A DNA stretch of 64,000 bases from Candidatus Binatia bacterium (GCA_963664395.2 OY761159.2:2976001-3040000); one strand, 5' to 3'. Positions 7,051 to 15,093 are shown, counted from the first letter of the stretch. The notes: a model not told the origin generated them from the sequence alone. Program-made: numbers and translations.

Positions 7051-7698
7051 CTAGGGTTTTCCCTCTCTCCAAATAATTCCCCCGCTTAAAAATCTTTGCT
7101 CTGCGTCTGTCATTTGTTGACTCTCTTTGGCCAGATTCCAGAACATGTGAAATACGTCTCTGTAAAAGCCTCTGGCATCAAGCGTCCATTGCTTCTCTGA
7201 CCCCGAAAGTCCTGGGGGTAACCAATCTGGCCGAGTCAGTGATCTTTCTATCTCTTCAATTTGATCGTTCTGGAGAGGATCTTTCCTGACCTGGATTTGA
7301 TAAGAAGATTTTCCGTGGACTCCAAGCGCGTGAGCAAAAGGGTTACGAAAGAGATCGTACAAGGCTTTGACTCCTTCAGTTCTGCTATCTCCTGGCTCCC
7401 AAGGATAGAAGTTTTTGAGCAGATGTTTGAAAGCCTCGCCTGAGCCGACCCATTTTGTCTTACCCTTGCGATCTCTCCAAGTAGGGTTCGAGGGCATGAA
7501 GATCGTCACTGAAATCCCACTGACAAGGCTGCACAGTCTATCTGTCGCGGCGAAATTACAGCCATGTTCTATGCCAAGCTCTGGAAGCGGAAGCCGCAGC
7601 ATAGCTCGAACATCTCCAAACTGCATGGAGAGATGGTCTCTAACAAAGGTAAAAACATGAGGATAGTTTTGGAGTTCTGGAATATCAGACAGCAGCAT
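7051..7698 (-). CDS. Hypothetical protein with HEPN-like R-x4-H motif
   Basis: GGGAG RBS; LYDLFRNPFAHALG; AT-richer composition; function inferred from the motif only. Confidence 0.6.
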   Translation of the reverse strand: MLLSDIPELQNYPHVFTFVRDHLSMQFGDVRAMLRLPLPELGIEHGCNFAATDRLCSLVSGISVTIFMPSNPTWRDRKGKTKWVGSGEAFKHLLKNFYPWEPGDSRTEGVKALYDLFRNPFAHALGVHGKSSYQIQVRKDPLQNDQIEEIERSLTRPDWLPPGLSGSEKQWTLDARGFYRDVFHMFWNLAKESQQMTDAEQRFLSGGIIWREGKP

Positions 7699-8071: not shown

Positions 8072-8395
8072 CTAGCTTTCGAGGGCGGCGCGCACGATGG
8101 GCTCAAGCTCGCCGCGGCTGTGCATTTCCTGGATGATGTCGCAGCCACCAACGAGCTCGCCATTCACATAGACCTGCGGAATAGTCGGCCAGTTTGAATA
8201 GCGCTTAATGCCGTCCCGCACCGCAGGGTCCTGCAACACATCGACGGTCTCGTACGGCACGCCCAGAGAATCGAAAATTTGGATGGTTGCGGCTGAGAAA
8301 CCACACATCGGGAAAGTCCGATTACCTTTCATATAGATGAGGACCTTATTGTTTTTTACCGTCTCATCAATGTGAGCGTGAACAGCATCTGCCAT
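8072..8395 (-). CDS. grxD: Monothiol glutaredoxin Grx4
   Basis: YMKG...PMCGFS active site, WPTIPQVYVNGELVGGCD. Confidence 0.96.
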   Translation of the reverse strand: MADAVHAHIDETVKNNKVLIYMKGNRTFPMCGFSAATIQIFDSLGVPYETVDVLQDPAVRDGIKRYSNWPTIPQVYVNGELVGGCDIIQEMHSRGELEPIVRAALES

Positions 8396-8448: not shown

Positions 8449-8754
8449 TTATGACTTGCTCGTTTCGATATTGACCAATCCCGAATTCTGCGCCTCAGCC
8501 TCGAATTCTTGGGGTGTCATTGTCTTGAGTGTCAAGGCATGAATGCGTTCGACCATGGCATCCTGGAGAGCACCGTACACTAATCGATGCCGGGCGACGG
8601 CATTCTTTCCGGCGAACTCTGCGGAAATAACAACGGCTTCGTAGTGATCGCCGCCACCGGTGTAATCGCGGATATGCACCTGCGCATCGGGTAGCGCCTC
8701 TATGATGCGGGACTGAATTTCGTCTACGGCAATGGGAGCCACGCCTTCTGGCAT
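8449..8754 (-). CDS. bolA: BolA/IbaG family protein
   Basis: GGGDHYEAVVISAEFAGK..VARHRLVY...IHALTLKT; adjacent to grxD. Confidence 0.93.
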   Translation of the reverse strand: MPEGVAPIAVDEIQSRIIEALPDAQVHIRDYTGGGDHYEAVVISAEFAGKNAVARHRLVYGALQDAMVERIHALTLKTMTPQEFEAEAQNSGLVNIETSKS

Positions 8755-8859: not shown

Positions 8860-8882
8860 GACCGCTTTTTGAGAGTCCTGAT

Positions 8883-8911
8883 AAAAAAGGGCACCGCTTG
8901 CTGGGTGCCCT
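8883..8911 (-). terminator. Intrinsic terminator after mini-protein gene 1
   Basis: Stem AGGGCACC/GGTGCCCT followed on the minus strand by a T run. Confidence 0.7.
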
Positions 8912-8983
8912 CCGGTGCTAGTGCAATACTGCACTAGCGTTTGTCTACCCTCTGGGATTGCTGGAGGGCAGTTGAAAACGAGG

Positions 8984-9100
8984 CTATTTTTTCTGCATCT
9001 CAGCGCCGCAGCACTTAATTGGGCCGTCTCCACCTTTGGTCACGATGACCTGAGCGCCGCAGCTTCCGCACAGATACATTTTGCCGAGTTGATTTGCCAT
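8984..9100 (-). CDS. Desulforedoxin-like metal-binding mini-protein 1 (38 aa)
   Basis: Manual translation MANQLGKMYLCGSCGAQVIVTKGGDGPIKCCGAEMQKK*; CxxC...CC; strong RBS AGGAGG; below the ORF-track cutoff. Confidence 0.85.
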   Translation of the reverse strand: MANQLGKMYLCGSCGAQVIVTKGGDGPIKCCGAEMQKK

Positions 9101-9124
9101 ACTACTATACCTCCTGTTTTTCTC

Positions 9125-9886
9125 TTAGCGTCCGGTAAATCGAGGTTTCCGCTTGGCTAAGAAAGATGCTACACCCTCGGCCCGATCTTGGGTCGTCTGG
9201 AGAAGAGCATAGAGATCTTCTTCCAACCGAACTCCCTGATCCAGCGTCAGATCCATTGCCTTATGTACCGCTTCTTTACCCAGTCGTAAAGCGATGGGGC
9301 CTTTGCCTAACAGACCGGATAGGACCTCGTCAACACGGGTCGAAAAGTCGCTTGCAGCCAGCACTTCAGTGACGAGTCCGATACGATACGCTTCAGGCGC
9401 GCCAACCTGTCTGCCCGTGAGGATCATTTCCAGGGCCTTTGCCTGCCCGACCACGCGCGGCAGGCGTTGCGTCCCCCCACCAAAAGGAATCATCTGCTCG
9501 CTAATCTGGGGGAGGCTGAAGCGAGCCGTCGAAACGGCAAGGCGGAGGTCGCAGGCTAAGGCCAGCTCCAGCCCGAGTCCGAACGCACTGCCATTGAGGA
9601 CCGCGAGCGTCGGTTTTGTTATTGCCGCGAGCGCTTTGACGCACTGGATGGGGCCGAATTGCTCACGAATTTTCTGCGCCGTATCGGCTGCTTGTGTCAG
9701 GCCCTCACAAAAACTATGCTCCGAGCCAGTGAGGACACCAATCTCGACAGCCTCGTCCTCCTCAACTGCCTGGCAGGCGGCTGCCAGTTCCTGGTCCGTC
9801 AGGGGAGTGAGCCGGTTGCCTTGGTCTGGACAAGACAATCGCAGCCAAGCCACTCTCCCTTGAATCTCGTACACAAGATCAGACAC
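9125..9886 (-). CDS. Enoyl-CoA hydratase/isomerase (crotonase) family protein
   Basis: KPTLAVLNGSAFGLGLELALACDLR, GGGTQRLPRVVG, EGVASFLAKRKPRF; GTG start. Confidence 0.92.
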   Translation of the reverse strand: MSDLVYEIQGRVAWLRLSCPDQGNRLTPLTDQELAAACQAVEEDEAVEIGVLTGSEHSFCEGLTQAADTAQKIREQFGPIQCVKALAAITKPTLAVLNGSAFGLGLELALACDLRLAVSTARFSLPQISEQMIPFGGGTQRLPRVVGQAKALEMILTGRQVGAPEAYRIGLVTEVLAASDFSTRVDEVLSGLLGKGPIALRLGKEAVHKAMDLTLDQGVRLEEDLYALLQTTQDRAEGVASFLAKRKPRFTGR

Positions 9887-9929
9887 AACGTACCCTTAAA
9901 AAGGAGCGTCCATTCGGACGCCCTGCTCA

Positions 9930-11481
9930 CTATTCGTACTGCGCTTTGAGTTCTTTCTTGAGGACTTTGCCCAAAGGATTCTTGGGAAGCTCGTCAATAA
10001 AATTAATCTCCCCTGGTTTTTTGAAGCTGGCCAGCCGTTCCTTACAGAAATCGCTAACTTCGTCCGCAGTGGCCGTCTGATCTGGCTTGAGGGCGACAAA
10101 GGCAACGATCTTTTGTCCCCAATCGACGTCAGGAACCCCGATAATTGCCGCCTCATCAACTGCCGGATGGGCGTGCAGGACCGCTTCGATTTCAGCTGGG
10201 GCGATGTTCTCACCGCCACGAATAATGATGTCGTCCTTGCGCCCGACCAGATAGACATAGCCGTCTTCGTCGATATAGCCCATGTCGCGGGTATGCAGCC
10301 AGCCGTTTTCGTCCAACAGGGCGGCGGTCGCACTTTCCTGATTGGCGTAGCCCTTCATCACGCGCGGAGTATGAATAACGACTTCACCGATCTCGTTGGC
10401 CGGCAGCTCTTTGTTCTCGTCATCAAGCACTTGGACTTCCACATCCGGCAGCGGTTTGCCGACCGAGGTCAAACGCTTGAGATTGCGCTCGACTTCTTCC
10501 GGCGTGCCGTTCAGCTTATGGTCATCCGGTCCAAGGACGGTCAGGGTCGAGTTGGTTTCGGTCTGGCCAAAGGCATTCACGAAACCGGTCGAATCCGGAA
10601 ACATATCAATAGCTTTGCGAATGACGGGGAAGGCCATGGGCGAGCCGCCATAGGAGACGTTCTGTAAACTCGACAAGTCATAGTTCGAGAACTCGGGATG
10701 ATCGATGAGTTGTTTGAGCATCGTGGGAACAACAAAAGCATGTGTGACCTGCTCGCTCTGGACTGCCTCCAGCCACTCTTCGGTATCGAACTGACGCAGG
10801 ATGGCGATCTTCCGGCCGTTCCAGAGCGCGGTCATAATGTTCATCGTGCCGGCAATGTGGTAGAGCGGAGCGCACAGGAGTGAAGTGCCGCGCGGAGTGC
10901 CGTCCGCCATTTCAACCGTGCCGATGACATAATTGGTAAATCCGCCATAGGTCAGCATCACGCCCTTGGGCAAAGATCGTCCCGCTGGTATACATCAGGA
11001 TGGACAGGTCGTCCTCATCCACTTCGACCTCTTCGATGTCGGGCGAACCCTGCTCAATCAAGTCGTCGTAGTGCAGCATATCGTCACGCCGCGTTTCGAG
11101 CGCGACATATGTCTCAACACAGCCAAGATTGGGCTTGAGGCTATTGACCAAGTCAATATAGCGAGCGCCCACAAGCAGAATCTTGGTCTCTGCCGCGGTA
11201 ATCATATATTCCAATTCAGGGGGCTTGGCCCGATAGTTCAGCGGCACAAATGTCGCGCCCAGAGTCGCCGTGGCATAATAGGCTTCGATGTATTGGGTGC
11301 AGTTTGTCTGCAAGATCGCCACGCGGTCACCCGGTTGAATACCTTGGTCACGCAAACCGCTTGCCAGCCGTTTGACCCGGTCCACGAGCGCTCCATAGGT
11401 CAACCGAGTGCCTTCAAAGGCCAGGATTTCCTGGTCCGGAAACATCATACCTGGAATGCCGATGAACTGTGACGTATTCAT
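9930..11481 (-). pseudogene. Acyl-CoA ligase (AMP-binding), split by a frameshift in the YTSGT-x-x-PKG motif (pseudogene or sequence error)
   Basis: ORFs 10912..11481 and 9930..10973 join as YTSGT[T]SLPKG if 2 nt are restored near 10977; FGQTE, GWLHTRDMG, GRKDDIIIRGGENI, PKNPLGKVLK. Confidence 0.9.
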
Positions 11482-12197
11482 TGTTGCTCCTTCACCAGTG
11501 CAAATAGATTTTGTTCCAGTCGTAAGCCATCGGATAAATTCAGGTCCGCTCCTTGTCGGACGGCCCGTTTTGCCAGGGCTACGACTGTCGGATGATAACG
11601 GGACAGTGTGTATGCCAGAGATTTAGCCTCCGTCAAGAGGGTCGCCAGGGGAACCACCTGATTTACCAGGCCAATTTGGAGGGCTTGGTCTGCCTTCAGC
11701 CGCTTTCCGGTGAGGACCATATCGAGGGCGCGGCCTAACCGAATTGCACGGGGCGCGGTCTGCGTCCCGGCGACCCCAGGGATCATACCGAGGCTCGTTT
11801 CCGGTAAAAAGAAGACCGTATCGTCTGCGGCAACGCACAAGTCGCACAGCAGCGCCATTTCCATCCCACCACCGACGGTATAGCCATGGACCGCCGCAAT
11901 GGTGGGTTGGGGCAAGTGCAACAGCAGCCCCCAATTGTCCCGTTGCCAACGGACTTCACGCGCCCGCACCGGAGAGGGCGCGGACCCGAACTCTGAAACG
12001 TCTCCGCCGGTACAAAAGGCCGGGCCTTCGCCACGCAGGATCATGACTCGGACCTCGGGATCATCCCGCACGGCCTGGAGAATTTCGTACAAATCGTCCC
12101 GCATCTCCACGTTATAGGCGTTGAGCATGGCCGGCCGGTTGAGGCTGACAACGGCGATGCCGTCGTCTTTTTCGTACAGGACTGCGGGGGAAGACAT
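11478..12197 (-). CDS. Enoyl-CoA hydratase/isomerase family protein
   Basis: LNRPAMLNA, AFCTGGD, PTIAAVHGYTVGGGMEMAL, LPETSLGMIPG; ATGA overlap with the ligase. Confidence 0.92.
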   Translation of the reverse strand: MSSPAVLYEKDDGIAVVSLNRPAMLNAYNVEMRDDLYEILQAVRDDPEVRVMILRGEGPAFCTGGDVSEFGSAPSPVRAREVRWQRDNWGLLLHLPQPTIAAVHGYTVGGGMEMALLCDLCVAADDTVFFLPETSLGMIPGVAGTQTAPRAIRLGRALDMVLTGKRLKADQALQIGLVNQVVPLATLLTEAKSLAYTLSRYHPTVVALAKRAVRQGADLNLSDGLRLEQNLFALVKEQQ

Positions 12198-12206
12198 ACA
12201 CGCTCT

Positions 12207-13766
12207 TTATGCCGAATAGACAATCTGTCCGTCAATGATTGTTGTGTGGACGCTTGCACTGCTTATTGCCTCAGCAGGGAGCCTCGTCAAGTCACTATCC
12301 AAATCGCTGTCAAGGATATTCACATCCGCACGCATTCCAGGGGCGATTCTGCCGACCCGGTTTTCCTCAAATCCAATCCAGGCTCCGGCGTGTGTGAAAA
12401 GACCAATCGCCTCAGACAGGGAGAGTCGTTCGGCAGGATTGAGGACAATTCCGGTTTGGGATTGGCGTGTTATGGCAGCTTGGACCGCTACCAGTGGTGC
12501 CTGCGGGGCGATTGGACAATCTGAGCTGCCGACAATTGGAATGTTTCGATCCCGGAAACTTTTTGCCCGGTACAACCAGGCGTGCAAATCCGGATCAATC
12601 TCTGCGGCATATTTGTCGCCATAGAAATGAAGAAAGCCGGGCTGCATCACCACCGCACAGCCCGTCTCGGCCAAGGTGTCGAGCAACGGCGGGGGGCAGA
12701 GCGTACAGTGTTCAATCCGATGACGATGATCGCGGCGAGGCAGCCGTTCTTGGGCTTGCCGAATCGCGTCGAGGGCCGCGCACACGGGGGCTTCTTCAAC
12801 CGCATGGATGGCGACCTGAAAACCATGGTGATGAACCTGCCATACCATTTCAGCCAGATCATCCAGGGGTGGATACAACTCGCCCCCACTTTCGTGCAGC
12901 ATGATTTTGATACTGCCAAGCCGGACGCGGTCATACGGACCGAAAGGTTGGAGTTCGGCCTCCAGGACTTCTGGGAAGGCATCAATCCCGACCATGACGG
13001 TTGCATGGGGACGTACTGTCCCGTTCGCGCGTAAGGTGGAGAATCGCGCTATATCCTCAAGTGTATTACCTGCACTCGCATCATGAAACGAACAAATCCC
13101 ATGTCTGAGCAATGCGTGGTTGACCTGTCGTAATCCCGCCTGAAACTCCTGCGACGGGAGCGGAGGAATTGTAGTCCGAAGAAATGACTCCAATTCGTAG
13201 ACGAGGCCCGTTGGTTCTCCGCTTGCGTCGCGCTCGACGTGTCCGCCCCTTGGAGGGGTAAAATTTGCATGTATGCCGGCTCGCCGGAGCGCCGCGCTAT
13301 TCAGAACGGCAGCATGGCCGGTCCGATGGCGCAGGATCACCGGTCGGTCGGTCGCTATGGCATCGAGGTCGTGTCGGTTCGGATGGCGTTTCTCGTCGAG
13401 AAAGAACTCGTCATAGCCATAGCCGCGCAGCCAGTCTTGCGAGCCGAGAGTAGTCAGACGCGCCTGGAGTTGAGAGCGGATTTCAGCAATCGACCGGGCT
13501 GCACTCAGGTCTGCGCCGCAGTAGCGGCTTGCCCAGGCAAAGAGGTGCAGGTGGGGGTCGATGAAGCCGGGCAGAACCGTTCTCCCGGCGCACGCTAAGG
13601 TCTGTGTTTTCGGCGAGACAAAGGAGCGCAGTTCCTCCTCGGTGCCGACCGCGAGGATTCTTCCTGCCGCGATAGCGACCGCTTGTGCTTCAGTCCGGTT
13701 CGGGTCGAAGGTGAGGACATGTCCACCGTAGAGTAGCAGGTCAGCAGTGTGGGGTGCGGAAGACAT
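12207..13766 (-). CDS. Metal-dependent amidohydrolase (Amidohydro_3/YtcJ-like)
   Basis: PGFIDPHLH, QVAIHA, RHRIEH, GSSDCP, GRIAPGMRAD. Confidence 0.92.
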   Translation of the reverse strand: MSSAPHTADLLLYGGHVLTFDPNRTEAQAVAIAAGRILAVGTEEELRSFVSPKTQTLACAGRTVLPGFIDPHLHLFAWASRYCGADLSAARSIAEIRSQLQARLTTLGSQDWLRGYGYDEFFLDEKRHPNRHDLDAIATDRPVILRHRTGHAAVLNSAALRRAGIHANFTPPRGGHVERDASGEPTGLVYELESFLRTTIPPLPSQEFQAGLRQVNHALLRHGICSFHDASAGNTLEDIARFSTLRANGTVRPHATVMVGIDAFPEVLEAELQPFGPYDRVRLGSIKIMLHESGGELYPPLDDLAEMVWQVHHHGFQVAIHAVEEAPVCAALDAIRQAQERLPRRDHRHRIEHCTLCPPPLLDTLAETGCAVVMQPGFLHFYGDKYAAEIDPDLHAWLYRAKSFRDRNIPIVGSSDCPIAPQAPLVAVQAAITRQSQTGIVLNPAERLSLSEAIGLFTHAGAWIGFEENRVGRIAPGMRADVNILDSDLDSDLTRLPAEAISSASVHTTIIDGQIVYSA

Positions 13767-13775
13767 AGCCCCCAG

Positions 13776-13804
13776 AAAAGGAAAGAGCGAGGTTTCCCTC
13801 GCTC
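13776..13804 (-). terminator. Terminator-like hairpin between mini-protein gene 2 and the amidohydrolase
   Basis: Minus strand GAGCGAGG-GAAA-CCTCGCTC followed by TTTCCTTTT. Confidence 0.65.
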
Positions 13805-13840
13805 CTCACTGTTAGGCGTACAGTTTGCAACAGACCGGTA

Positions 13841-13981
13841 TCAGTCAGACGACGGAAGCGGCTTGGCTTCCTTGAGCGGCATTTCTTTATCGCAGCAGTT
13901 GAGCGCGCCGTCGCCCGGCTTGTTGCACAGTACCTCAGTCCCGCACTCTTCGCACATATAGCGTTTACCCAGTTGTGCCAT
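13841..13981 (-). CDS. Desulforedoxin-like metal-binding mini-protein 2 (46 aa) with C-terminal KPLPSSD tail
   Basis: Manual translation MAQLGKRYMCEECGTEVLCNKPGDGALNCCDKEMPLKEAKPLPSSD*; RBS AGGAGG; paralogous to 8984..9100. Confidence 0.88.
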   Translation of the reverse strand: MAQLGKRYMCEECGTEVLCNKPGDGALNCCDKEMPLKEAKPLPSSD

Positions 13982-14019
13982 TGATTCCTCCTGTCGTGAT
14001 ATGTCTCTACAAGTAATAT

Positions 14020-15093
14020 CTACTGTAGAAACGGTAACTTGGTCACCTCGGCTATCATGTCCGCGTCCGGCCTGTCAATCCGCAGCCGGGTGCCCGGCTC
14101 GCCATGTTCACGCCGGACATAGCCCAGGGCAATCGGTCGGCCCAGCGTTGGGGAGGTTGCGACGCTGGTCAGCCAGCCGACTTCCTTGTCGTCCTTCACT
14201 AGTCGGTCGCCTCGTGTCGGCAAGGCAGCCTGCGCCTCATTTTGCAGCAGAAACCCACTGAGCTGACGATTCATACGCCCGCGCGCAGAGGCCCGCTCGA
14301 CGACTTCCTGGCCCAGATAACAGCCTTTATCAAAATTAATGGCTCGGTCGAGGCCGACCTCCAGCACGATTCTTTCTTCGTCCATATCGAGGCCATACCA
14401 CGGAATGCCGGCCTCAACCCGAAGTATATTCAGCGCGGTATGACCGACGGGAAGCAGCCCGTCGAGTTGAGCGAGGGCCTGCCAGACGACGGATACCCGG
14501 TCGCCGGGAACGTGAAACTCATAGCCACCCTTACCGGTCTGGTCAGAGCGAACCACACGGACCCGAACATCTGCAAGCGTTTCGTCCCGATGCTGTAACT
14601 CCTGCTCCGGCAAGGAAGAGAGACCGGCTGCCGCCAGGACTTCTGCCGCGGCCGGGCCTTGGACCGCAAGGGTCACCTGATGGGTGCTCAGGTCTTCAAT
14701 TTCCACATCATCGGCAATGATAAAACGGTCGAGGGCTTCAATCGTCTTTTCCTTGATACGGGCATCAAGGTCGAGAAGGATTGCCGACTCTTCGGCATAG
14801 ACGCGCAAATCCGCCACAATCCTTCCCTGCTCCGTCAGCAGCGTTGCCGGACAGCCCTCGCCGGGCCGCAGGGCTTTGACATCGTTGGACAGCATGCCCT
14901 GCAGAAAATCGGTGCGATCTTCTCCCGTGAATTTCACCTGGGTGCGAAAGGACAGGTCAATCAGTCCCGCCTTTTCGCAGACGGCTGCGTAGTCGTCCTG
15001 CGGGTTGGTGAAGGCGTTCGGGAGTTCAAGGCCGCGATCGTCGGTGAGCGGTACGCCCTGGCTTTCAAGCCAGGCAGAGAGAGAGCTTTTCAT
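14020..15093 (-). CDS. ygfZ: YgfZ/GcvT-family folate-binding protein
   Basis: KGCYLGQE signature; TGEDRTDFLQGMLSND; LRVEAGIPWYG. Confidence 0.88.
   Translation of the reverse strand: MKSSLSAWLESQGVPLTDDRGLELPNAFTNPQDDYAAVCEKAGLIDLSFRTQVKFTGEDRTDFLQGMLSNDVKALRPGEGCPATLLTEQGRIVADLRVYAEESAILLDLDARIKEKTIEALDRFIIADDVEIEDLSTHQVTLAVQGPAAAEVLAAAGLSSLPEQELQHRDETLADVRVRVVRSDQTGKGGYEFHVPGDRVSVVWQALAQLDGLLPVGHTALNILRVEAGIPWYGLDMDEERIVLEVGLDRAINFDKGCYLGQEVVERASARGRMNRQLSGFLLQNEAQAALPTRGDRLVKDDKEVGWLTSVATSPTLGRPIALGYVRREHGEPGTRLRIDRPDADMIAEVTKLPFLQ

Follow-up and report, generated by a model that had tools for sequence, protein, structure and literature searches.

The locus considered here raises a simple question: what do two very small proteins with a predicted desulforedoxin fold do at the two ends of an acyl-CoA gene cluster? 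The cluster lies in a stretch of 64,000 nucleotides (nt) from a Candidatus Binatia bacterium (GCA_963664395.2 OY761159.2:2976001-3040000), which was analyzed as a whole and is referred to as the window. All coordinates are counted from its first letter, and the genes, ribosome-binding sites and hairpins of the cluster described below are all on the minus strand. The two mini-proteins are Dx46 (46 amino acids [aa], positions 13841..13981) and Dx38 (38 aa, 8984..9100). We found that they are the best-conserved genes of the cluster and that they belong to a large family without a name, members of which occur in Binatia, Actinomycetota, Pseudomonadota and beyond. As judged from their sequences, members of this family travel with one clade of AMP-forming ligases. 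The role that we consider most likely, and propose tentatively, is that of a non-covalent docking or organizing subunit of an acyl-CoA module. This would be a known fold in an undescribed use; neither a helper nor a carrier protein of this kind is described in the literature searched.

Two mini-genes under purifying selection

The original prediction, made from the sequence of the window, placed two paralogous mini-genes around a co-oriented run of enzyme genes. Both were found on the minus strand at the positions given there and encode exactly the peptides listed, and the order is the predicted one: Dx46, amidohydrolase, crotonase, AMP-forming ligase, crotonase, and Dx38. Each mini-gene also has the expected AGGAGG ribosome-binding site, read from the sequence, 5 nt ahead of the ATG of Dx46 (13987..13992) and 9 nt ahead of that of Dx38 (9110..9115). 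Across the 56 orthologous loci used for codon-level comparison, a Shine-Dalgarno-like core (within 16 nt) precedes Dx46 in 52 and Dx38 in 47.

Both mini-genes are under strong purifying selection. The proportions of replacement and synonymous differences (pN/pS) are 0.131/0.662 for Dx46, 0.137/0.626 for Dx38, and 0.076/0.636 for the last 11 codons of Dx46; synonymous sites are near saturation and replacement sites are not. This codon-level evidence indicates that both mini-genes are translated. Contigs of two metatranscriptome runs cover both mini-genes, and strand, ends and level are not readable from them; such contigs show presence in the library only, and the libraries may contain DNA. They give no basis for the suggested production of Dx46 in excess over the enzymes.

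A terminator-like hairpin follows each mini-gene, as had been proposed. The hairpin after Dx46 (13772..13807, stem 13782-13807) has a U-rich tail and 11 pairs (6 GC), with a folding energy of -21.1 kcal/mol (z -3.2), and it is listed by a consensus scan. The hairpin after Dx38 (8880..8913, stem about 8886-8913) has a U6 run and 10 pairs, with an energy of -18.6 kcal/mol (z -1.7). It was read from the sequence and its fold, and is absent from the consensus-scan list, which includes only the Dx46 hairpin. RNA-library contigs of two runs stop at 13778 and 13789, where DNA-type contigs continue, which hints only weakly that a 3' end lies at the Dx46 hairpin.

A large family with a conserved C-terminal tail

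A word-indexed search recovered 137 relatives of Dx46, 25-81 aa long (mostly 47 aa) and 72-96% identical, which are annotated, where named, as 'hypothetical protein'. Coding matches to the Dx46 family number at least 562 in a genome collection and at least 589 in a metagenome collection. When 1.84 billion representatives of 50%-identity clusters were searched with a profile, 1151 matched at E<=0.001, 211 of them at E<=1e-10. The searches made found no literature on this family. ESM Atlas holds just 'hypothetical protein' or Desulfoferrod_N clusters with no function attached.

Dx46 ends in the sequence LKEAKPLPSSD-COOH, and the predicted conservation of this tail is borne out. Six positions (K40, L42, P43, S44, S45 and D46) are invariant in 30 relatives, and 121 of the 150 best distant representatives end in two small residues and Asp; most of the other 28 resemble read-through or frameshifted gene calls. 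Variants of the tail include KPLPSSD, KALPSSD, KPLPASD, RKLPSSD, KVLPSAD, and KPIPGSD. The tail is always at the very C-terminus of Dx46-family proteins. A second motif, LGKRY, opens the domain and is conserved as strongly.

Within loci of the Binatia type, Dx46 has a median identity of 84% to its window counterpart, and Dx38 one of 74%. Corresponding values for the enzymes are 62 and 52% for the two parts of the ligase, 61% for the first crotonase (ECH_A), 47% for the second (ECH_B), and 35% for the amidohydrolase. Conservation above that of every enzyme in the cluster fits a protein with several binding partners.

Three database entries deserve separate mention. The 508-aa protein P0407, which falls in a cluster of 47-aa proteins, was rejected as a fusion; it is an ABC ATPase and a clustering artifact. 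An apparent fusion of Dx46 to the amidohydrolase (P0124) looks like a read-through gene call and was not used. The 80-aa protein P0283 has a Dx46-like N-terminus (LGKRYLC...CNKPG...CC) followed by the apparent start of a superoxide-reductase centre II in place of the tail; it may be a true desulfoferrodoxin near the mini-protein family, or else the gene call is chimeric.

Probable halves of a single protein

The two mini-proteins occur in four arrangements. In metagenome-assembled genomes (MAGs) with Binatia titles the halves are at opposite ends of the enzyme cluster, as in the window. In other lineages of the same phylum grouping they are adjacent genes, tail-less then tailed, 24-190 nt apart, and follow ECH_B, ECH_A, and the ligase. 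Elsewhere they form one fused chain of about 96-108 aa with the same N-to-C order, in which the N-domain is Dx38-like and the C-domain Dx46-like; Dx38, which ends in a conserved QKK, is thus the counterpart of the fused N-domain and of the upstream gene in adjacent pairs. Proteins of about 100 aa that end in KPLP[SA]SD near actinobacterial acyl-CoA synthetases had been mentioned in the original prediction, and such fused proteins do occur in Rhodococcus, Mycobacterium, and Streptomyces, as well as in Sphingobium. The fused forms have no NCBIfam or Pfam model, and public annotations call them 'hypothetical protein'. In a further arrangement, the tailed ribbon domain stands behind an unrelated helical N-domain of about 60 aa without a Pfam match (P0303-P0309, P0323, P0329, P0342-P0345, P0349, P0364, and P0374).

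One genome of the window's class (G143) retains the GcvT-like, amidohydrolase, ECH_A, ligase, and ECH_B genes without the split mini-genes. A single fused, Cys-free gene on another contig replaces both. Because the halves also occur as adjacent and as fused forms, and because of this swap, we infer by a Rosetta-stone argument that Dx38 and Dx46 are two halves of one protein and probably form a heterodimer. This agrees with the proposal that the tail-less copy is the partner of the tailed one. The opposite isoelectric points (4.9 for Dx46 and 8.8 for Dx38) are compatible with a heterodimer and not diagnostic of it. The two-part or fused design presumably mirrors the homodimer of desulforedoxin.

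The fused gene of G143 (L172 7958-8251, minus strand, G143:C8; neighboring open reading frames [ORFs] 9705-13143) is downstream of ZnuA-, ABC ATPase-, and ABC-3 permease-like genes, as in zinc-uptake transporters. A Cys-free form near zinc uptake recalls what we take to be a similar case, the zinc-independent paralogues of zinc-ribbon ribosomal proteins; it is possibly a coincidence.

A structural model of one fused protein (P0161) has high predicted confidence (mean local distance difference score, pLDDT, 93.3; template-modeling score, pTM, 0.82), which declines over the last 13 residues, first to 84 and then to 70. Superposed on desulforedoxin (1cfw_A), all 36/36 residues of its C-domain align with a root-mean-square deviation of 1.5 A (Z 3.3), and at this Z desulforedoxin is the top match of the fused model in a wide VIA-align search. 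A Foldseek comparison of the fused model with the PDB gave nothing at E<=0.001, and the fused-form profile gave no match to PDB sequences at E<=10. Searched against the PDB, the profile of the mini-protein family matches Dfx and Dx chains (E 3e-4 to 2e-3).

A dispensable metal site

Both Dx46 and Dx38 have four Cys (CxxC...CC) and match the desulforedoxin domain PF06397 at 24.1 and 26.8 bits, respectively, above the Pfam cut-off of 23. The 5.04-Mb genome (96% complete) contains no further PF06397 match. The assignment to this domain family, made earlier from the Cys pattern, stands as a prediction of the fold. The Fe/Zn site that this pattern denotes in desulforedoxin is dispensable in the family. 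Among 121 tailed representatives, the tailed domain has CxxC and CC in 63 and an incomplete site in 34 (often with Cys-His where Cys-Cys would stand); the other 24 have lost CxxC, with no more than two Cys left. All 121 retain LGKRY and the tail. The Cys are missing from many of the fused proteins, and Cys-less relatives of this type give no PF06397 match. As CxxC is lost in those 24 representatives, the metal site is, on sequence evidence, best read as structural and not redox.

These observations bear on the possibility that the mini-proteins are genuine desulforedoxins, that is, Fe(Cys)4 one-electron carriers that serve a redox enzyme. The Pfam match and the four Cys in both window proteins are what such a carrier would have. 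However, the Pfam scan detected no redox enzyme among the cluster genes, and no superoxide-reductase domain (PF01880) was found in the genome, as had been noted for the window. Taken together with the loss of Cys, this makes an electron-carrier role very unlikely. The parts that define the family are moreover outside the metal site. Unlike desulforedoxin and the N-domain of desulfoferrodoxin (PF06397; 1cfw, 1dxg), with which Dx46 and Dx38 share the Pfam match and the CxxC...CC pattern, the mini-proteins have the LGKRY start and an 11-residue C-terminal tail, often lack metal ligands, and are linked to acyl-CoA enzymes in place of superoxide reductase. Overall, Dx46 and Dx38 belong with the desulforedoxin domain by their Pfam match and, probably, their fold, and behave otherwise by function; 'desulforedoxin' names the fold and not the job. 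The existence of Cys-containing and Cys-free forms constitutes a natural experiment on the dispensability of a structural metal.

Linkage to acyl-CoA enzymes

The ligase is the most constant of the enzymes that accompany the mini-proteins. We examined 80 loci of the Binatia type, drawn from at least 562 matches; 63 have at least 6.7 kb of sequence downstream. Of these 63, 62 encode the ligase, 61 Dx38, 60 ECH_A, 60 ECH_B, and 59 all four, so the conserved ligase and crotonase neighborhood that had been anticipated is present. The amidohydrolase is between Dx46 and ECH_A in 56 of the 63.

For the fused form, 80 metagenome loci were drawn from at least 589 matches, and over-long spurious ORFs without Pfam matches in high-GC loci were excluded. 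The ligase is directly downstream in 41 of the 55 loci with at least 700 nt on that side, often after a gap of 3-60 nt; a crotonase takes this position in three others. A crotonase is within 3.5 kb in 18 of 22 fused-form loci with at least 3 kb downstream, and an amidohydrolase occurs in 5 of 13 loci with 3 kb on both sides.

The fused gene is also present on 18 plasmid records (Rhodococcus, 11; Streptomyces, 3; Sphingobium, 2; Mycobacterium, 1; Sphingomonas, 1). We inspected 12 of these contexts, four with 9 kb of flanking sequence and eight with 4 kb. A gene annotated as an AMP-binding, class I adenylate-forming, or fatty-acid-CoA ligase adjoins the fused gene in 11 of the 12. A crotonase is in view in 6/12 and an amidohydrolase in 2/12. 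The remainder is variable and includes CaiB/BaiF CoA-transferases, acyl-CoA dehydrogenases, thiolase with oligonucleotide/oligosaccharide-binding (OB)-fold proteins, short-chain dehydrogenases/reductases, and phosphotransferases. Crotonases and amidohydrolase are thus frequent, not universal, neighbors. The family occurs in culturable, genetically tractable bacteria (Rhodococcus, Streptomyces, Sphingobium).

These contexts also touch on a regulatory or turnover role, in which a protease or transcription factor would recognize the tail as a signal and a pathway intermediate would be sensed by the protein. Several fused genes have a GntR or TetR regulator nearby, and the tail is both terminal and conserved. 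No regulator is found within the Binatia cluster, however, and it is enzymes, not regulators, that consistently accompany the mini-genes. We regard such a role as improbable.

In the window the ligase gene (9930..11481, PF00501 and PF13193) is read in two frames (10912-11481 and 9930-10973). Compared with four orthologues, two bases are missing near 10976/10977, within the P-loop YTSGTTSLPKG. A repaired ligase had been called for in the original prediction, but the frameshift is absent from contigs of three runs (X1, X4, and X15), which carry two extra letters behind 10976; X1 holds 99% of the words of the stretch, and X15 is an RNA run. Because of these contigs, and because the ORF is intact (513-527 aa) in 56 relatives, the frameshift is probably an assembly or consensus error and not the mark of a pseudogene. 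Read from the sequence, the ligase has all ANL core motifs. It is a generic relative of FadD5, MenE, and 4-coumarate ligases and reaches no NCBIfam equivalog cut-off.

The ligases that adjoin the mini-genes group together. In a quick maximum-likelihood tree of 41 ANL enzymes, in which the outgroups are few and on long branches and for which the careful search is unfinished, 14 split-type and 20 fused-type ligases are on one side of a branch with a Shimodaira-Hasegawa-like approximate likelihood ratio (SH-aLRT) of 99. On the other side are seven ANL enzymes, two from the same plasmid loci and five from the window's genome; the latter are at most 31% identical to the ligase. A phylum sample of 201 genomes includes 12 with a full-length tailed protein. 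A score of 656 bits or more with the ligase profile is reached in exactly 10 of the 201, all among the 12 tail-bearing genomes, and the next score is 517. In one of the other two tail-bearing genomes (G182), the contig ends at the expected position of the ligase.

The two crotonases are distinct. ECH_A (11478..12197; PF00378, E 1e-54) is a canonical enoyl-CoA hydratase with both catalytic Glu; among 71 orthologues examined, the GGGxE...PE motif is kept in 56/56 with a readable pattern. In ECH_B (9125..9886; PF00378, E 2e-46) the second catalytic Glu is replaced by Gln (LPE to LPQ in an alignment with 5zai). The first Glu is kept in 67 of its 71 orthologues, and the second catalytic position is Gln in 63, His in 4, another residue in 4, and Glu in none. 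Because this second Glu is never present, we classify ECH_B, by its residues, as a conserved atypical crotonase that appears always paired with a canonical one and is not itself a canonical hydratase.

The amidohydrolase (12207..13766, 519 aa) is a predicted Amidohydro_3 metal-dependent hydrolase (PF07969, E 8e-84). Its PDB relatives are just the uncharacterized structural-genomics hydrolases 3icj and 3igh. All 12 tail-bearing genomes of the 201-genome sample have a homologue (E<=1e-49), and the nine best matches are all in genomes of this kind; weaker homologues occur in 13 of the 189 others. We considered substrates of the menaquinone (MenE/MenB), hydroxycinnamate, acrylate/dimethylsulfoniopropionate, and carnitine types, for which resemblances are weak and none reaches a family cut-off.

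Predicted role of the mini-proteins

We tentatively suggest that the mini-protein is a non-enzymatic component of an acyl-CoA module that would comprise a CoA-activating enzyme, a canonical enoyl-CoA hydratase, the Glu-to-Gln crotonase, and often the Amidohydro_3 hydrolase. Dx38 and Dx46 would be the halves of one small ribbon-fold protein held by a structural metal, with the flexible, always-terminal tail ...K-P-L-P-S-S-D-COOH as its working end. The tail, with its free terminal carboxylate, may plug into a pocket of the CoA-activating enzyme and perhaps also dock into the crotonases or the hydrolase. One analogy is the C-terminal tip of the single-stranded DNA-binding protein SSB, which docks partner enzymes; another is offered by the MbtH-like proteins that accompany adenylation domains. 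Docking is favored because it is the commonest role of such proteins and because the surrounding CoA-thioester enzymes need no carrier. ANL acyl-CoA ligases are treated as self-sufficient enzymes, and no description of a conserved small partner protein of these ligases was found in the literature searched. A docking subunit would therefore imply an unrecognized multi-enzyme organization of a catabolic acyl-CoA module, and would account for any misbehavior of such ligases expressed without it. A complex prediction (ligase with a 56-row alignment, Dx46, Dx38, and two Zn) gave interface scores (ipSAE) of 0.06 and 0.03 against a mark of 0.32, values that speak neither for nor against binding.

Several points weigh against docking. 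Physical binding to any of the enzymes is something that we infer, and the ligase is not strictly required in cis. In one tail-bearing genome (G152) a two-subunit class I CoA-transferase (PF01144 twice) occupies the ligase slot of a cluster that still has ECH_B, ECH_A, both mini-genes, and the amidohydrolase; this gene pair (L170 8456-9906, G152:C10) represents a non-orthologous displacement of the CoA-activating step. In three metagenome loci (L123, L124, and L162), family III CoA-transferases and a crotonase are beside the fused gene, with no ligase. Such persistence of the mini-protein beside enzymes unrelated in fold to the ligase is not easily squared with a fold-specific accessory, and fits better a binder of several module members, or a substrate carrier. 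The twelfth plasmid context (H16) has no CoA enzyme adjoining the fused gene, and has hydrolases, FAD oxidoreductases, and an aminotransferase there. The fused gene of G143 is not linked to the enzyme cluster, and the form with the helical N-domain occurs in one Candidatus Nealsonbacteria MAG. Finally, an invariant terminal acidic residue after small residues is a hallmark of covalently used C-termini, such as those of LysW and ubiquitin-like proteins.

The replacement of the ligase bears equally on a narrower proposal, that of a strictly MbtH-like activator or chaperone that binds only the ANL fold, for solubility or adenylation, with the tail incidental. Like MbtH-like proteins (PF03621), which serve the adenylation domains of nonribosomal peptide synthetases, the mini-protein is small, stands alone, adjoins a gene of one ANL clade, and is inherited with that clade. 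Unlike them, it has an unrelated fold with no PF03621 match in Pfam scans, its partner is an acyl-CoA ligase clade and not a peptide synthetase domain, and it has a conserved free C-terminal tail. It is also kept when CoA-transferases of two unrelated families stand in for the ligase, and the low pN of the last 11 codons shows that the tail is not incidental. We consider this proposal unlikely.

Another small ribbon protein found in acyl-CoA clusters is the DUF35/ChsH2 type of scaffold (PF12172, PF01796), which resembles the mini-proteins in having a rubredoxin-like ribbon and no catalytic residues. The mini-proteins differ in lacking an OB domain and any PF12172 match. DUF35 genes are located beside some fused-form genes; as such loci encode both proteins separately, one is not the equivalent of the other.

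The main competitor of the docking subunit, already raised in the original prediction, is a covalent carrier that would follow LysW-like logic with CoA enzymes in place of ATP-grasp enzymes. The ligase, or the CoA-transferase that replaces it, would activate the tail Asp as an adenylate or CoA thioester; in a variant, the pathway substrate would be joined to the tail Asp by an amide or ester bond and, if amide-linked, might itself be activated. The tethered or activated species (protein-tethered CoA) would next be acted on by the crotonases, and the Amidohydro_3 enzyme would release the product. In LysW, the amino-group carrier, we presume a comparable anatomy, that is, a metal-ribbon globule of about 50 aa with a flexible, acidic-ended tail, encoded within an enzyme cluster that includes a hydrolase that could release the product. 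A small metal-ribbon globule with a flexible, acidic-ended tail is what the sequence, the conservation, and the model of the fused relative indicate for the mini-protein, with a Pro-containing linker ahead of its invariant terminal acidic residue. The fixed position of the tail at the very C-terminus, the conservation of the mini-protein above every enzyme of the cluster, the direct adjacency of its gene to a carboxylate-activating enzyme, and the distribution of the amidohydrolase among tail-bearing genomes all accord with a carrier. The enzymes that replace the ligase share with it the conversion of carboxylate to CoA thioester and not the fold.

Other evidence is less favorable to a carrier. 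The cluster encodes no ATP-grasp (LysX/ArgX-type) ligase, phosphopantetheinyl transferase, or E1-like enzyme that could act as loader, and no ATP-grasp ligase is annotated in the 12 plasmid contexts. There is no match to the LysW models; an NCBIfam scan of Dx46 and Dx38 gave desulfoferrodoxin models only. Unlike LysW, which ends in Glu, the mini-protein ends in Asp and its partners (ANL ligase, crotonases) are CoA-dependent. Neither tail Ser is individually invariant across the family, as PASD, PSAD, and PGSD tails exist. Canonical crotonases use CoA thioesters, and many actinobacterial contexts are ordinary beta-oxidation sets with acyl-CoA dehydrogenases and thiolases, in which the amidohydrolase is infrequent. 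We also know of no AMP-forming ligase that acts on a protein C-terminus, which counts against loading of this kind. A carrier thus seems to us a real possibility, though not a probable one; if correct, protein-tethered small-molecule metabolism would have been invented a second time, independently. Overall, the family combines LysW-like anatomy with MbtH-like genomic behavior, resembles neither in sequence or in partners, and is not DUF35.

Surroundings of the cluster

A Pfam scan identified GcvT-like, Glu/Leu dehydrogenase, BolA, and glutaredoxin genes as flanking genes of the cluster. The first of these (14020..15093, minus strand) encodes a GcvT/YgfZ-like folate-binding protein (PF01571 and PF08669), and its 3' end is 38 nt ahead of Dx46. 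In an NCBIfam scan the product scores 78.3 bits against the cut-off of 49 for the YgfZ/CAF17 domain TIGR03317, and GcvT models are below their own cut-offs. A homologue is upstream of the tailed gene in 78 of the 80 Binatia-type loci and was not found in non-class or fused-form contexts; it is a class-specific upstream neighbor. In G143 the YgfZ-like gene overlaps the start of the amidohydrolase gene, and the two may be co-transcribed.

Downstream are BolA (8449-8754) and glutaredoxin (8072-8395), both on the minus strand and found in this position only in closer relatives of the window. The YgfZ/CAF17-like gene upstream and BolA and glutaredoxin downstream, which bracket the cluster, are usually linked to Fe-S cluster trafficking. 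Just past the glutaredoxin gene, the segment 6001-8000 has a GC content of 0.466, versus about 0.57 elsewhere. It encodes a 215-aa ORF (7051-7698, minus strand) with no Pfam match, and the segment may be foreign DNA.

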